NCBI GenBank assembly: GCA_965219995.1
Contig: CBDCOX010000002.1
Coordinates: forward strand, 1,312,001 to 1,376,000
DNA: 64,000 nt
Source: Candidatus Latescibacterota bacterium
Lineage (GTDB): Bacteria > Latescibacterota > UBA2968 > GCA-2709665
Direction of reading: 5' to 3'
Shown: piece after piece, positions 4,726 to 21,183 of the stretch
Layout of the letters: each line of letters begins with the position of its first letter
How positions within the stretch are numbered: the first letter of the stretch is position 1
Position numbers and translations under genes: made by a program
The notes under the pieces: generated by a model
Seen by the model: only the letters and a program-made list of their open reading frames with translations
What the model was told of the DNA's origin: nothing
Database searches by the model: none

Positions 4726-5070
4726 TTTCTGTACGGAACTTAACACCGAATCCGTCGCAGAATGCGACGTATACAGCTGCGCGTCGTGTTGAATTGACCA
4801 TAGATACGGATTCGCATATATTGCGTTCTCTTTCCATAAGATATCCATGCGCTCGTCTGTCAATGGTGGTTGATAAAGTGCGTGGAGTAGGTTTCGCAAG
4901 AGTGAATACCTGTACCTGCAATGCCAATCAGTCTGTCAGACGTTAAGTTGGCAGCATTGATAGATCTGCGTTACACAAATTCGAGAATCGACTTTGGGAA
5001 AAAGTGGCATAACCTCAGAAATCGCAGTTAATCGACGTTTATAATCTCACGAATTCGGGAAGTAATCTCG

Positions 5071-6261
5071 ATGTTCACAGGTGCATCGCGGATCAAGTCT
5101 CTCGAAATCTTCGCTGGTGCAGGTGGGCTCGCGCTCGGCGCCGCACGTGCCGGATTTCGTCATGTCGCCGTGATTGATTCTGACAATGCGTCTTGCCGCA
5201 CACTGCGTCGAAACAAGGCTGACGGGGTTGAGCATGCATTGAACTGGAAAATCGTAGAATCCGATACGCGTTTTTACGATTTCGAGAAGTACGCAGGGCA
5301 CGTACATTTGGTTTCGGGAGGACCGCCATGCCAACCCTTTTCCAGCGGTGGCAAGCGATTGGGCCACGCCGATAAGCGGGACATGTTTCCACATGCCATC
5401 CGAGCGGTCCGTGAGATTCGGCCAATGGGATTCCTATTTGAGAACGTCAAAGGGCTAATTAGACCAAGCTTTTCACGCTACTACGAATACATAATTCTAC
5501 AGCTCAGGTTTCCAGGTGTCTCACAGCGGGACGGAGAGAATTGGACCGATCATTACCGCAGACTTGAGCAACTATGTGCGGCCACGAGCAATTCGGAACT
5601 TATGTACAACGTTGCCTACAAATGTCTGAACGCTGCCGATTACGGCGTTCCACAAAGACGTGAACGTGTCTTCGTCGTTGGAACTAGGGCTGACCTTGGA
5701 TTGGAGTTCAACTTCCCACAAGGATCACACTCACGTGAGGCGCTTCTGCGTGATCAATGGGTAACTGGACATTACTGGGAACGCCACGAGATTCCGAAGT
5801 CTAAACGCCCGAATGGGCCACCAAACAGGCTGAAGCGACGGATTGAAAAACTATCCTTAGGTGTTTTTGATGAACTTGGTAGCCCCTGGCGGACTGTGCG
5901 TGACGCGATTCGCGACCTGCCTAGAGTTGGGATAGGTCAGACGTCCAAGAAAGCCTCGAATCATTTTCTCAACCCAGGGGCGCGTGCATACCCGGGGCAC
6001 GATGGCAGCAGATGGGACGAACCCGCGAAGACGATTAAGGCTGGTGACCACGGCGTGCCGGGCGGCGAGAACACTCTACGTTATGACGGTTTATCAGTGA
6101 GGTATTTCTCGGTTCGGGAGTGTGCTCGCTTGCAAACATTCCCCGACAACTGGTACTTTGAGGGATCCTGGACCAATTCCATGCGGCAACTAGGTAATGC
6201 TGTTCCTGTTGATCTTGCCAATGCGGTCGCTTCGAAACTCTTCGCTGCACTTGCGGGTTAG
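5071..6261 (+). CDS. dcm: DNA (cytosine-5) methyltransferase, M.Eco29kI/M.SacII-like by recall (possible target CCGCGG)
   Basis: Motif I FAGAGG, IV GGPPCQPFS, VI ENVKG, VIII QRRERVFVVG, IX RLQTFP, X GNAVP. TRD PGARAYPGHDGS...KTIKAGDHGVPGGEN resembles my recollection of M.Eco29kI. Confidence 0.95.
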   Translation: MFTGASRIKSLEIFAGAGGLALGAARAGFRHVAVIDSDNASCRTLRRNKADGVEHALNWKIVESDTRFYDFEKYAGHVHLVSGGPPCQPFSSGGKRLGHADKRDMFPHAIRAVREIRPMGFLFENVKGLIRPSFSRYYEYIILQLRFPGVSQRDGENWTDHYRRLEQLCAATSNSELMYNVAYKCLNAADYGVPQRRERVFVVGTRADLGLEFNFPQGSHSREALLRDQWVTGHYWERHEIPKSKRPNGPPNRLKRRIEKLSLGVFDELGSPWRTVRDAIRDLPRVGIGQTSKKASNHFLNPGARAYPGHDGSRWDEPAKTIKAGDHGVPGGENTLRYDGLSVRYFSVRECARLQTFPDNWYFEGSWTNSMRQLGNAVPVDLANAVASKLFAALAG

Positions 6262-17483: not shown

Positions 17484-18707
17484 ATGGCCCTGCATTACAT
17501 CAAACGCTCGCTGGAACCTGTCCTCAGGAGGGCGGCCGCCGAATTTCCGGCCGTCGTCCTGACCGGACCGCGGCAGTCCGGCAAAACGACACTGCTCCAG
17601 CGTCTCTTTGCCCGTCGGTACAAATACGTCTCTCTCGAGCCGCCGGACGTTCGCGCAGCTGCCGTCGAAGACCCGCGAGGGTTCCTGGAACTGTATCCGG
17701 CGCCGGTGATCTTCGACGAGGTACAATACGCACCCGACCTGCTCTTCTATATCAAGGAGAAGATCGACTCAAACCGGAGCCGAGCCGGTCAATACCTGTT
17801 AACCGGCTCCCATAATCTGCTGCTCGTCCAAAACATCACCGAGTCGCTGGCAGGTCGTGCTGCGATTCTCCGACTCTTGCCATTGTCCAGGCGTGAAGTC
17901 GATGGGCGTCCTCACGCTCCCCTCGCCTGGGAGCGCGAAAGCCACCCGTCCGCGAGACCGCGTGCCGGCTACGGTGCGTTGTGGCAGGAGTTCCTTCGCG
18001 GCGGCTATCCGGAACTTGCGGCCCAACCCGATCGGGATGTCTCGCTCTGGCACGCCAGCTACATTCAGACCTATCTGGAACGGGACGTTCGCAGTTTGCG
18101 GCAGGTAGGCGACCTCACACAGTATCAGAACTTCCTGCGGGTTCTGGCCGCCCGAAGCGCCCAGCTACTTCGGCTGACCGACGTGGCTCGCGACCTCGGG
18201 GTTGCAGTCAATACCGTCAAAGCCTGGCTGTCCGTACTTGAGGCCACCTATCAGGTAATCGTCCTGCGGCCCTACTTCGCGAACGTCGGGAAACGGCTCG
18301 TCAAAACCCCGAAAGTCTATTTCACGGACGTCGGCACGTTGTGCTACCTGGTCGGTCTCAAGGATCCGGAGCATGCGGCCTCCGGACCCATGGGCGGCGC
18401 TCTGCTTGAAACGGCCGTTCTGTCAGAAATCGTCCGGGCGTTGACCCACCGCGGGATCGATCCGCAGGTCTATTTCTGGCGAACTCTGGCGGGATTGGAA
18501 GTTGATTTCGTCGTTGATACAGGCGCCGGTCTCGTCCCCATCGAAGTGAAGTCGTCCGCGACGCCGCGCCCGGGCATGGCCAACGCCATCAGGATGTTCC
18601 AGGGCGACCTGAAAGGCGTTGCAAGACCGGGATACGTCGTCCATCCCGGCGACGTCCGTGTACCGCTTGGTCCGGCTGTAACCGCCCTGCCCTTCGCCGA
18701 CCTCTGA
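17484..18707 (+). CDS. AAA_14 ATPase with DUF4143 (wHTH + PD-(D/E)xK-like C-terminus)
   Basis: GPRQSGKT, IFDEVQ, LTGS, ESLAGR, GGYP, TYLERDV, KTPKVYFTDVG, EVDFVV...IEVKS. Confidence 0.93.
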   Translation: MALHYIKRSLEPVLRRAAAEFPAVVLTGPRQSGKTTLLQRLFARRYKYVSLEPPDVRAAAVEDPRGFLELYPAPVIFDEVQYAPDLLFYIKEKIDSNRSRAGQYLLTGSHNLLLVQNITESLAGRAAILRLLPLSRREVDGRPHAPLAWERESHPSARPRAGYGALWQEFLRGGYPELAAQPDRDVSLWHASYIQTYLERDVRSLRQVGDLTQYQNFLRVLAARSAQLLRLTDVARDLGVAVNTVKAWLSVLEATYQVIVLRPYFANVGKRLVKTPKVYFTDVGTLCYLVGLKDPEHAASGPMGGALLETAVLSEIVRALTHRGIDPQVYFWRTLAGLEVDFVVDTGAGLVPIEVKSSATPRPGMANAIRMFQGDLKGVARPGYVVHPGDVRVPLGPAVTALPFADL

Positions 18708-18739
18708 TGAGGCCTCGCCTTGGTTCCCCCGCCGGCCGT

Positions 18740-20254
18740 TCATCGATTCGCCGTTTTCGCAATGGTTTCCACGAACTCGAGCGCTTCCACGTCTTCGAAG
18801 CTTTTCTCGATGAGAGCGATCGCGTCGTTTCGCTTCCAGGTCTCCCAGTTCTTCCTGACAGCGCCACGCGCGTTTTCGACGAGTCTGTCCGGTTCCGGGT
18901 GAACGATTACAAACATCCGTCCTCCCTTGCCGTCGTACCAATCGATCAACTCACTGTTGACACCCCTGTCGTCAAAGCCGTAACCACAGACAACCATCGT
19001 GTTCGCCTGTCCAATGGTTGATCGAAAGCAATAACGGAGTTCGCGGAATATCCCGGATCCATGTTCAGGGACCGCGTTCGCCGGCCCGATCAGCAACACC
19101 CGCGGGCTGTGTTCCGCGTACACAAAGCTGCCTTCATCGCCAATGCGCAGAGGATAGAGATGATGCGGGACCCGTCTGATCCGCCCGTCGGTATAGCGGT
19201 ACCAGTCTACGGAACCTCGTAGCTTCAGAAACGGAATCGCAACATCCGCTGGGACGTTGCCGGTCCAGAGCGAAATGGCATCCTGCTGTGCCGAAAATCC
19301 ATCGACCAGTACTATCTCCCGGTCTCTCAGAAACGTCTCAACGTGCGTTTCGTGGCTCAGCGTCGCCAGACTGGTGACGTTGAAAACCTTACAGGCGTGT
19401 TCGATGGCGTTCAGATGCCGTACCCGATCCGGCGCAGGTTGATGTATCGCCAGGCTCTGTGAAACGACGTCCTCTATGTATTTGCACGTTTCCCTCATCA
19501 GGCCTTCCAGATCGAGGGAAACGGGCGTCTCGATCGGGCCGGCGCCACCCACGTTTGCCTCTGTCGCCATTGGGGCCGTAGACGACATCCCGGCTCTCAG
19601 GTCATTGACGAACCCGCGGACGGCCGGGTTATCCATTTCTTCCCTCGTTTCATCCAGAACCTCACGGGCGAGGAGACAAATGTCCTCGTAATCGACGTCT
19701 GTCCCCGCGTTCGCTGTCAGGTTCGACTCCGCCTCGGCGCCCAATCGTCCCGCCATACCCGCGGGAATCCTCACGGCTTCCGTACACGGTTCATTTCGGC
19801 CGCTGATGTAGAAACTCCCGTCACTGTGCCTGGTAACGCCGCGCCCGGAGACAACCAGACCGGTCAGTTCCCGTGTGGACGGATAGCCGGCCGCTGCCGA
19901 CGCGCCGGCGCCCAGAAGCACGGCGATGCCGGTATTCCGGTATACGCCTTGCCCTTCCCAAAGGGTCGGCTGAGGCTGATACCGCTCGACCTCGATCCGG
20001 TCTTCGTTTTCACGGGCCTGCAGGAGGTCGAATGCCGTCTGCCGGCGCAGCCAGTACTCCGCGTCGGACCATCCCGCTTTCTCGAGCCGGATGGCCATTT
20101 CCGGCGAGATGGCCGCGTGCCCGTTGAGTACCCGCGAAAGCGTGTGGCGCGCCACCCCCAGCACCCTCGCCGCGTCCGTGACGCTCAGACAGAGCGGGTC
20201 GAGCCAGTTCTCCACGATGCTCAATCCCGGATGGGGCAATTGTTCGATCGCCAT
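18740..20254 (-). CDS. HigA-family HTH antitoxin fused to a degenerate SIR2-like (SIR2_2) domain
   Basis: PHPG...[36 protein letters not shown]...[11 protein letters not shown], then [16 protein letters not shown] (for TxNxD), LKLRGSVDW (for LKLHGS), [16 protein letters not shown] before ATG 20254. Confidence 0.85.
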
Positions 20255-20560
20255 GCGGTCTCCCCCGGCTCGTGGCGGTCGAGCAGGTCGACGCCGTGCG
20301 CGCCGCTCACCCAAATATGATGAGAGTTCAATAGTCCATACTCAGGGAGGCAAATCAGAGATTGCCGTTGCTGCACCGGAAAACCCGAATGTATCGCGTA
20401 CCGGTACGCGGGTCAAGTAAAATCACATCCGCCCGGGCCGCAGGCACACAGTGGGAACTTCGATATCAAACGGGGACAAAAAAAACCGGCAGGCTGACGC
20501 TTGTGGGACTTCGGTACCTGATCGTTCGCCGTTTAAATTCGGGGCAGGCATTCGTGCAAT

Positions 20561-20953
20561 TTACAGTTGCGAAACGCCGTCGATCCGCGCTGCTTCTCTG
20601 TCGAAGGTGTAAAGCGGACCCGCTCCGGCGCGTTCGGCCGCCGCCAGGATCATCAGATCCGAGAATCCGCCGCCAGACGTACGGTACCGTATCGCCGCGC
20701 GAGCCACGTCTCCGGCCTCCTCGATGACGAGACCCTCCGTGGCCACGAGTTCCACAAGTATCTTCGCAATGCGGCCAGGCGAGAGGCCATAGGCCCGTTC
20801 CAGCACCCAGACGAGCTCGACGACCACCTCACGGCAGACGAAACCCGGTCGGTCGGCCGTGAGTGACTCCAGCAGCGCGCGGGCCCTCTCGGCCTGCTGC
20901 GCGTCGTCCCGCACCAGAAAGCGAACGAGCACATTGGTATCCAGGCCGATCAC
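20561..20953 (-). CDS. vapC: VapC PIN-domain toxin
   Basis: MIGLDTNVLVRFL..DD..Q, ELVWVL, FSDLMI, YTFD. Confidence 0.93.
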   Translation of the reverse strand: MIGLDTNVLVRFLVRDDAQQAERARALLESLTADRPGFVCREVVVELVWVLERAYGLSPGRIAKILVELVATEGLVIEEAGDVARAAIRYRTSGGGFSDLMILAAAERAGAGPLYTFDREAARIDGVSQL

Positions 20954-21183
20954 TCGTCCGCCGCACCGTCGGATACGGCCTTCTCCATCTCCTCGACGGT
21001 CAGGGCGGGACCTTGAACCCTCAGCACACCGAACAGCCGGCCGACGGGCTTCAGGGGCAGAAGGCGCACGTCGCCATCGGTGATGACGTACCGCAATCTG
21101 TCTCCCGTGTGTACGCCCAACGCCTCCCGAACGAACTTGGGAATTGTCGTCTGCCCCTTCGTGGTGATTGTAGATTCATACAT
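20950..21183 (-). CDS. AbrB/MazE-fold antitoxin (VapB)
   Basis: STITTKGQTTIPKFVREALGVHTGDRL; 4-nt overlap with vapC. Confidence 0.92.
   Translation of the reverse strand: MYESTITTKGQTTIPKFVREALGVHTGDRLRYVITDGDVRLLPLKPVGRLFGVLRVQGPALTVEEMEKAVSDGAADE

Follow-up and report, generated by a model that had tools for sequence, protein, structure and literature searches.

An orphan HigA antitoxin fused to a sirtuin-like domain with replaced catalytic residues in a genus of Latescibacterota

The stretch of DNA analysed in this study (the window) comprises 64,000 nucleotides (nt) of a Candidatus Latescibacterota bacterium (assembly GCA_965219995.1, contig CBDCOX010000002.1, positions 1,312,001 to 1,376,000 of the forward strand). 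Its minus strand carries a gene whose product joins the antitoxin HigA to a domain of the sirtuin (SIR2) type, in the order HigA domain, flexible linker and SIR2-like domain (Table 1). A first reading of this locus, made from the sequence alone (in the following the sequence-only reading), had described one uninterrupted open reading frame (ORF) of about 504 amino acids, and our analysis indeed found a single frame of 504 codons plus the stop codon without any internal stop. The ATG is preceded 5 nt upstream by GGGGGAG, which resembles a Shine-Dalgarno sequence. A longer variant of the ORF starting with TTG at 20314 found no support, since every relative starts with MA(I/M/V)E. Because the next downstream gene is convergent, the transcript of the fusion gene probably is monocistronic.

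Table 1. Features of the HigA-SIR2 locus. Positions refer to the window; residues are those of the fusion protein.
Feature	Position	Strand	Basis and remarks
HigA-SIR2 fusion gene	18740..20254	-	unbroken ORF; 11 full-length homologs; indel-free contigs from two studies
HigA-type XRE helix-turn-helix (HTH) domain, residues 1-97	19964..20254	-	TIGR02607, Pfam HTH_3
Linker, about residues 98-108	19931..19963	-	low predicted local distance difference test (pLDDT) values; unfused SIR2 relatives start right after the linker
SIR2-like domain, residues 109-504	18743..19930	-	AlphaFold model, Foldseek matches, family profile
GAGAS glycine-rich loop, residues 115-119, retained	19898..19912	-	G115, G117 and S119 in at least 95% of unfused relatives
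TLSHE, residues 298-302, in place of family TL(N/C)HD	19349..19363	-	Ser codon AGC, Glu codon GAA
KLRGS, residues 344-348 (LKLRGS 343-348)	19211..19225	-	Arg346 codon CGA at 19217-19219
GPANA, residues 390-394, in place of family GTFNK	19073..19087	-	T391P, K394A
GYGFDD late Rossmann motif, residues 424-429, retained	18968..18985	-	G424, Y425, F427 and D429 in at least 95% of unfused relatives
5' leader, about 133 nt, possible higB remnant	20255..20387	-	leader lengths and alignment across loci
Sigma-70-like promoter, TTGACC-17 nt-TACATT	20388..20416	-	sole promoter-like site in 18500-20700
Perfect 16-bp palindrome CGCGTACCGGTACGCG, putative HigA operator	20395..20410	.	fills the spacer between -35 and -10 box

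Eleven other database proteins of 500-504 amino acids share 61-82% identity with the window protein over 99-100% of its length, and two further homologs are truncated (P0003) or carry an internal deletion (P0014). In species-representative genomes the fusion was found at seven loci, one of them broken. Among 168 genomes scanned across the phylum, it occurred only in the genus of the window, in which 10 genomes, that of the window included, contain an intact copy with a frame of 500-504 codons and neither stop codon nor frameshift; seven genomes from other genera of the same family contained none. The syntenic site is bordered by hflK, hflC, an MA-type peptidase gene and coaE on one side and by NYN and Sel1-repeat genes on the other. 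Besides the fusion gene, the region between coaE and NYN holds a varying set of small toxin-antitoxin (TA) genes and mobile genes, among them VapBC, Fic and AAA_14/DUF4143, and no conserved partner gene was seen in the orthologous fusion loci. In the protein tree all fusion proteins form one clade (100/100), and its sister is P0015, an unfused SIR2 protein of 388 amino acids (98/97).

The junction of the two parts, which the sequence-only reading had named as the point to verify, is bridged by contigs of the runs X5 and X6 with zero indels listed. X5 provides one contig over 18965-20500 with 5 differences and no gaps, and X6 covers the fusion gene by contigs over 18914-19822 and 19798-20500. 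As ten intact syntenic copies exist in the genus and the junction is spanned without indels by contigs from two other studies, the fusion is a true, inherited gene and not an accident. No description of a HigA-SIR2 fusion was found in the searchable literature, paywalled papers and supplements lying outside this search. The records of the loci L005 and L006 are labelled Gemmatimonadota and those of L001-L004 Latescibacterota; since all carriers fall into one genus in a genome search, these labels look inconsistent.

The N-terminal part of the protein matches the NCBIfam model of HigA (TIGR02607) over residues 7-82 with an E-value of 1.3e-22 and 79.4 bits, compared to a cut-off of 47.7, and Pfam HTH_3 with an E-value of 1.1e-5. 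Its closest free-standing relative is a HigA of 107 amino acids with 80% identity that is encoded behind a canonical higB of 92 codons' product length, i.e. 92 amino acids (locus L008, Caldilineaceae genomes). Since this free-standing HigA ends about 6 residues beyond the fusion point, the HigA part is complete to within about 6 residues, with the fusion point about 6 residues ahead of the natural end. The former description of a complete HigA holds except for these few residues. The fusion protein resembles the HigA of HigBA systems in its family match, in its 80% identity to the HigA of L008 and in a promoter homologous to that of the L008 higBA operon, with a putative palindromic operator inside; it differs from HigA of these systems in the missing HigB partner and in its C-terminal SIR2 domain of 400 residues.

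That no higB lies upstream had also been seen at first sight, and this holds: there is no ORF in 20255-20560 upstream of the fusion ATG, and in a search of the whole window genome (G000) with the HigB profile PF05015 nothing was found near the locus, the nearest match being about 280 kb away. The distance between the -10 box and the ATG is about 255 nt in nine other fusion loci, which is near the length of a higB gene, and about 133 nt in the window, where the leader falls about 120 nt short of every other one. In the leader of L016, the deepest-branching locus, tblastn with the L008 HigB pointed to a HigB-like stretch, HRGLKRLCEHGE, with an E-value of 0.11 in a tiny database, and a 14-nt match to the 3'-end of higB is as far from the higA start codon as in higBA. 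Among the leaders of the fusion loci such HigB-like traces are confined to L016. A PF05015 search of five genomes that read through stop codons gave no match in any leader, and local DNA alignments of leaders with higB did not score above shuffled sequences, the observed score being reached by 9 of 200 shuffles for L016 and 7 of 200 for L017, with worse results for the other eight loci. The toxin gene likely eroded in place within the leader, for which the higB relic provides a hint only.

The same HigA subtype, with HTH regions 43-80% identical, also heads other long proteins (P0049-P0053). P0050 combines the HigA head with a GTPase (MMR_HSR1) and KH domains in 701 amino acids; in P0053 it is followed by 600 residues of no assigned domain, and the C-terminal parts of P0049 and P0051 are likewise without assignment. 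This HigA subtype may be a regulatory head used repeatedly on different effectors; alternatively, some of the cases may be read-throughs of gene calling. In L029 a separate intact gene of the HigB family (about 5026-5500; G057:C5:1995235-1995501, minus strand; PF05015 E-value 2.5e-19) lies downstream of the fusion gene at a distance of about 1.4 kb and probably belongs to another higBA module of the same islet rather than being the partner of the fusion.

Promoter and palindrome are kept in all ten orthologous loci, with diverged flanks. The 10-bp centre of the putative operator precedes the gene in eight of the ten intact loci and in the broken copy of L007, and L012 and L019 carry variants of one or two bases. 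The promoter of the L008 higBA operon reads TTGATAAGTGTATCGGTATACGGTACATT; the promoters of the fusion genes follow TTGAC(A/C)..GCGTACCGGTACGCGATACATT and share 22 of 29 bases with it. A palindrome inside the promoter is typical of antitoxin genes that repress themselves and, as far as the sequence can tell, argues for local self-control and not for a regulon. Within the 5.4-Mb genome the 14-bp core of the putative operator has a single exact occurrence. A wider regulon is not claimable, since the core is unique and all five sites with one mismatch are located inside long open frames; allowing up to two mismatches gave 75 sites compared to 39 for a control pattern. The conserved, operator-like palindrome within its own promoter makes it very probable that the fusion protein is a DNA-binding regulator, which supports this part of the sequence-only reading.

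In the C-terminal part of the window protein, Pfam SIR2_2 (PF13289) reached 12 bits, below the gathering score of 24.5, and precomputed PF13289 matches exist for several homologs, the fusion protein P0005 among them. The SIR2 models of PADLOC matched the window protein only partially (best E-value 9.7e-9), and six family members were matched as distant relatives at best (1e-14 to 5e-26). An AlphaFold model of residues 100-504, derived from an alignment of 33 sequences, reached a pLDDT of 86.8 and a predicted template modelling score (pTM) of 0.86. Foldseek returned the SIR2 domain of SIR2-HerA as the best match of this model in the PDB (8sub_B with an E-value of 8.8e-10 and a template modelling (TM) score of 0.53; 8wld_E with TM scores of 0.54/0.62), followed by FAM118B, the Sir2 of SPARSA, ThsA and DSR2, all of these and SIR2-HerA with a probability of 1.00. 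A sequence profile of the family compared with solved proteins found two SIR2 domains of SIR2-HerA (3.3e-8 and 1.4e-5) and no other solved relative. In the profile alignment the family motif TLcHD sits on TTNYD and KLhGS on KLHGS of the solved proteins; it is this alignment to solved sequences, not an inspection of coordinates, that assigns residues to the pocket.

SIR2-HerA (Nezha; 8sub, 8j4u, 8w9l, 8wld) thus is the best structural counterpart, with TM scores of 0.53-0.54 and a similar size of about 380-415 amino acids. Its oligomeric SIR2 shares GAGxS, T-x-N-x-D, KLHGS and G(Y/F)xFxD with the family of the fusion protein. In contrast, sequence identity is only 11-16%, no HerA gene is adjacent in the window or in the orthologous loci, and the window protein lacks the Asn and His and possesses the N-terminal HigA domain.

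Searches with the family profile retrieved 4357 representative proteins at E-values up to 1e-3 and 873 at up to 1e-30. The best 150 of the 4357 representatives were inspected, and independent fusions of HTH and SIR2 domains are possible elsewhere; P0130, P0174, P0060 and P0146, four representatives whose N-termini are longer, show no HTH. The unfused parent family (P0015-P0201, loci L030-L109) consists of stand-alone proteins of about 390-400 amino acids with the motifs GxGxS, NYEDxxxLA, TL(N/C)HD, KLHGS, GTFNK and GY(S/G)FGDK. It showed no shared partner gene, neither in a BLASTP clustering of 25 loci nor in a Pfam scan of 80 neighbouring proteins from 23 loci, which covered the two nearest ORFs per side after two of the 25 loci without a full-length SIR2 ORF had been dropped. 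In these 23 loci the genes often are located beside defence or TA genes (AbiE twice, GmrSD, Mrr, a type I restriction-modification system, ParE, PIN), and HerA was found beside one of them, that of the most distant member. The window genome encodes a single member of this SIR2 family and no second copy. The unfused parent family is a candidate family of single-gene defence sirtuins that is apparently uncharacterised and has no well-matching PADLOC model.

Residues were counted in an alignment of 180 unfused relatives and 15 sequences of the fusion clade; conservation figures of at least 95% refer to the unfused relatives with a residue at the respective position. The sequence-only reading had reported that the nucleotide-binding loops GAGAS and GYxFxD are kept, and both were recovered, the latter as GYGFDD. 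It had also read TLSHE and LKLRGS with a CGA codon for Arg at two sites of catalysis, and in the alignment the Ser and Arg of these motifs indeed take the places of the catalytic Asn and His known from solved defence sirtuins. Position 300 is Asn in 121, Cys in 49, Ser in 5 and Ala in 5 of the unfused proteins and Ser in the window protein. The following His301 is shared by the window protein and 176 of the 180, and Asp302, present in all 180, is replaced by Glu. At position 346 the unfused family has His in 179 cases and Asp in one, and the window protein has Arg; within the fusion clade, 8 of the 14 proteins with a residue there have Arg and 6 have His. The GTFNK motif is also highly conserved in the 180 unfused proteins (T391 in 171, N393 in 174, K394 in 177).

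TLCHD is found in most fusion proteins and in their nearest unfused relatives, and TLSHE in the window protein, P0002 (the protein of L018) and P0003. Since Cys300 occurs in 49 of the 180 unfused relatives, the Cys state is older than the fusion, and the supposed change from Asn to Ser really went from Asn via Cys to Ser. The original notion of two exchanges, Asn to Ser and His to Arg, therefore stands insofar as both residues are replaced; it needs correction in that the nearest relatives already carry Cys and that the change from His to Arg is recurrent and not specific to this allele. Out of 30 positions conserved in at least 95% of the unfused relatives the window protein differs at six (Q198E, D302E, H346R, T391P, K394A, Y398H), compared to 0-5 in the other fusion proteins and a maximum of three in the unfused ones, 124 of 168 of which show no difference, a contrast somewhat flattered by the definition of the invariant positions on the same unfused set that served as background. 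Three of the six changes, at positions 198, 391 and 394, lie in the predicted dimer interface described below rather than in the NAD pocket.

As Asn/Cys300, Asp302 and His346 are replaced by Ser, Glu and Arg, respectively, the SIR2 domain of the window protein most likely is not an NADase. A report on FAM118 proteins (PMC12700824) states that mutation of the matching His or Asn in FAM118B/A abolished NAD processing and that the equivalent His is important in SIRT2 and ThsA. The mutation H171A of DSR2 is listed in a PDB title.

Ten distinct intact fusion genes were available as DNA, with P0003, P0010 and P0013 represented by protein sequences without DNA. At codon 346 His is always encoded by CAT, and Arg by CGT (L019, L020), CGC (L016, L018) or CGA (window). 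A DNA tree built without this codon requires a minimum of three changes between His and Arg. Forcing all Arg-bearing genes into one clade cost 92.5 log-likelihood units, and a single origin of Arg is rejected by the approximately unbiased (AU) test (p 2.6e-7), for which the groups were named after the tree had been seen; L019 and L020 as one clade were not rejected (p 0.42). His was replaced by Arg in at least three, possibly four, events inside the fusion clade. Spread of an Arg allele by recombination was rejected as well, since identity around codon 346, in windows of 15-50 codons, tracks the gene tree. The retention of His in 179 of 180 unfused proteins and its loss at least three times after the fusion fits a released catalytic constraint better than the repeated invention of new chemistry.

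Metatranscriptome contigs of one study (X19, X20) match parts of the gene with 90-97% identity, one of them over the junction (19801-20005), and the X19 contig from an RNA library reads CGC at codon 346, which still encodes Arg. They were rejected as evidence for expression, since such libraries may hold DNA and the contigs are derived from relatives.

The ratios of non-synonymous to synonymous divergence (dN/dS) are Nei-Gojobori estimates, with branch values obtained by least squares. In the HigA part dN/dS ranges from 0.03 to 0.13 in pairs without L016, L019-L020 apart, and the L016 pairs and L019-L020 reach 0.17-0.23. The SIR2 part gave 0.15-0.32 over all 45 pairs, values to be read with the reservation that the deep pairs have a dS near 1, close to saturation, and that at least one allele is mosaic. 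The pair of the window and L018 is informative in this respect. Because both genes carry Ser300, Glu302 and Arg346, their divergence postdates the loss of the residues, and dN/dS of their SIR2 parts is 0.25 at an unsaturated dS of 0.42. Branch estimates for the SIR2 part are 0.30 for the window, 0.19 for L018 and 0.23 for their stem, 0.25 for L016, 0.16 for L019 and 0.33 for L020, and 0.15-0.28 for the His-bearing branches; all fall within 0.15-0.35 and none is near 1. Purifying selection keeps the SIR2 domain with or without the His. Its persistence despite the lost cleavage residues argues for a non-catalytic role of the domain. The alternative put forward in the sequence-only reading, a recent accidental fusion now decaying, has to be rejected in view of the ten intact syntenic copies and the low dN/dS of the SIR2 part, including the 0.25 between the window and L018.

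In the comparison of these two genes, synonymous divergence is uneven, with 1.49 in the HigA part compared to 0.42 in the SIR2 part. HigA part and leader of the L018 allele (L018/L001 gene) are near those of other lineages, with a dS of 0.30 to L012, and the 5'-end of this allele probably was replaced by recombination. Gene conversion from a paralog was rejected as the source of this odd divergence, because no close paralog exists; the most similar other HigA-like sequence shares 45% identity.

Two copies of the SIR2 domain are predicted to pair. The pairing score was 0.60, compared to 0.02 for the best of three controls. Among proteins of solved structure, 20 of 30 that form pairs of one chain pass the mark applied, as does 1 of 23 single-chain proteins; these pass rates hold only roughly, since our own alignment was used for this prediction. 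At least 82% of the contacts agree between the dimer runs, and the pLDDT of the partner is at least 80. The symmetric predicted interface comprises, in full-length numbering, residues of about 175-217 (the helices NYEDxxxLA...GEMENPA), 390-411, 430-442 and 463-467, and thereby includes 390-391 and 393-394. This result may reflect the likeness of the domain to solved SIR2 oligomers. In the full-length model residues 77-106 have a pLDDT below 50, the linker is predicted to be disordered, and, with a pLDDT of 50-70 for the HigA part, the model gives no reliable arrangement of the two domains.

Taken as a whole, these results can be accommodated by the following scenario. The ancestor would have been a higBA TA operon whose toxin gene higB eroded away, and a stand-alone gene of a defence-type sirtuin of about 390 amino acids would have been fused in frame to the 3'-end of higA. 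In the presumed dimeric product the two HigA HTH heads would bind the 16-bp palindrome of their own promoter and repress it. Cleavage of NAD would have become dispensable after the fusion and the His would have been lost repeatedly, while the SIR2 fold would still be needed to hold the repressor as a dimer or oligomer, to bind a ligand or protein modulating DNA binding, or both. We give about even chances to this explanation, a self-repressing orphan HigA with the sirtuin domain as a non-catalytic dimerising or sensing module.

Defence sirtuins have been studied as NAD+-destroying effectors. The recurrent loss of the His in a domain that stays under selection points to a non-catalytic use of this fold, be it as scaffold or as sensor; the searchable literature describes no such use for bacterial sirtuins. 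A more far-reaching and rather doubtful version is that the sirtuin, freed by the fusion and kept as a sensor or dimerisation domain, would be the first sirtuin-fold pseudoenzyme sensing NAD+, ADP-ribose or a related nucleotide signal in a bacterial repressor. If true, His- and Arg-bearing orthologs would constitute a natural series of an immune effector turning into a regulator. The ten orthologs, five with His and five with Arg, are a ready comparison set for the function of the fold without catalysis, and the fusion loci also bear on how a TA operon is rebuilt after the loss of its toxin. ADP-ribose is the effector of NrtR. This regulator is a conceptual analogue and, besides the HigA-peptidase fusion of PD-lambda-2 described below, a precedent for the architecture, as it combines a DNA-binding domain with an enzyme-like effector domain related to NAD metabolites (PMC2330246). 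The folds are unrelated, however, since NrtR is built from a Nudix and a winged-helix domain, and NrtR runs regulons of NAD biosynthesis, whereas the putative operator found here belongs only to the promoter of the gene itself.

Several observations weigh against the explanation as a self-repressing regulator, in addition to the near-saturated deep pairs, the mosaic allele and the flattered contrast at the invariant positions mentioned above. The fusion gene is dispensable in the genus. It has no match in 3 of the 14 other genomes of the genus (completeness 95, 99 and 100%), the copy of genome G052 (L007) is split at nucleotide 839 by an insertion of 194 bp, and G058 keeps merely a remnant of 74 residues. 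The metagenomic protein P0014 (425 amino acids) retains TLCHD and KLHG and has lost about 79 residues between KLHG and CGYGF by an in-frame deletion in the middle of the SIR2 domain. A repressor acting only on itself through a single operator has no obvious output. The three or four changes to Arg could in part be due to transition bias, as CAT to CGT is one of two non-synonymous transitions, and repeated Arg alone is no proof that Arg is favoured. The ortholog of L016 (P0012) carries G117D; since a glycine of the GxG loop is thereby lost, nucleotide binding may not be general across the orthologs, which speaks against NAD-type sensing as a general role. Finally, as reported for SirTM (PMC4518038), these sirtuins lack the catalytic His and still are robust ADP-ribosyltransferases, with Gln137 and Arg192 involved.

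This last finding leads to the strongest competing explanation, which we consider possible but unlikely: the protein may have remained an effector, i.e. a one-gene defence or TA-like module with altered chemistry in which Arg346 takes part in ribose or phosphate binding and autorepression by HigA keeps expression low. The frequent location of the unfused relatives beside defence and TA genes would agree with this, as would the 24 of 30 family-invariant positions that are intact, both Rossmann loops included, and the dN/dS of about 0.25, which shows that the SIR2 domain matters. SirTM (Rack et al. 2015, PMC4518038) also provides a precedent of a sirtuin fold without the canonical His, with an Arg near the ribose and robust ADP-ribosyltransferase activity. 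Unlike the window protein, in which Asn, Asp and His alike are replaced and whose gene has no macrodomain gene nearby, SirTM keeps the Asn, has the His replaced by Gln, is linked to a macrodomain and acts on a known substrate. A second precedent is the defence system PD-lambda-2 (Vassallo et al. 2022, PMC9519451), in which a HigA-type HTH is likewise combined with a C-terminal domain of an enzyme fold in a defence or TA setting; there the domain is a peptidase and not a sirtuin, and only there does the system include a HigB-like toxin together with a third component. Against a retained effector activity stand the combined replacement of the Asn equivalent and the His with the invariant Asp now being Glu, the at least three losses after the fusion of a His that is present in 179 of 180 unfused proteins, and the abolished NAD processing upon mutation of the equivalent His or Asn in FAM118 (PMC12700824).

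Less probable, and in our view unlikely, is a slowly decaying relic, i.e. a maintained orphan antitoxin HigA with a dead toxin-like SIR2 appendage on its way out. The missing, broken or remnant copies in the genus (3 of 14 other genomes, G052/L007 and G058), the loss of about 79 residues after KLHG in P0014, the eroded active-site and GTFNK motifs, and the far stronger constraint on HigA than on SIR2, L016 pairs and L019-L020 apart, could be understood in this way. A relic would not be expected to show a SIR2 dN/dS of 0.25 at a dS of 0.42 between two genes that already carry the dead-site residues, and no branch is near a dN/dS of 1. Moreover, all 10 species-level copies are open with 500-504 codons, and strains in other runs are free of indels.

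The protein could also serve as a decoy or dominant-negative subunit that co-assembles with an active sirtuin, be it encoded by the host or by an invader, and silences it, or that soaks up a phage trigger or inhibitor, which appears quite improbable to us. Its SIR2 domain is predicted to self-associate (0.60 versus 0.02), and related sirtuins are oligomeric, as indicated by PDB titles on the SIR2-HerA dodecamer and by the FAM118 filaments (PMC12700824). Nevertheless, the genome contains only this one member of the family, and neither the orthologous loci nor the surroundings of the unfused relatives show a conserved partner gene, leaving the decoy idea of the sequence-only reading unsupported. 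An assembly or sequencing artefact joining two genes, finally, can be dismissed as next to impossible, given the same frame in 10 genomes, the 11 further database proteins and the indel-free bridging contigs from two other studies.

The first five bases of the insertion in the broken copy (L007, 6840-7033), GTTAA, recur behind it, in a pattern resembling the target-site duplication of a small non-autonomous element. Directly upstream of the fusion promoter of the window lie, on the minus strand (20561-21183) and with an overlap of 4 bp, genes for VapC (PIN, 130 amino acids) and VapB (AbrB/MazE-type, 77 amino acids). A VapBC pair is not present in all loci: it also precedes the fusion gene in L006 and L029, and only the 3'-end of vapC was found in L012, L015, L019 and L020. 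On the other side, an ATPase gene with AAA_14 and DUF4143 domains (17484-18707, plus strand, 407 amino acids) runs towards the fusion gene, the two stop codons being 32 nt apart. It is intact in L004, L006 and L007 and fragmented in L001 and L029. As it is not conserved across all orthologous loci, it probably is an independent mobile or defence-like gene.

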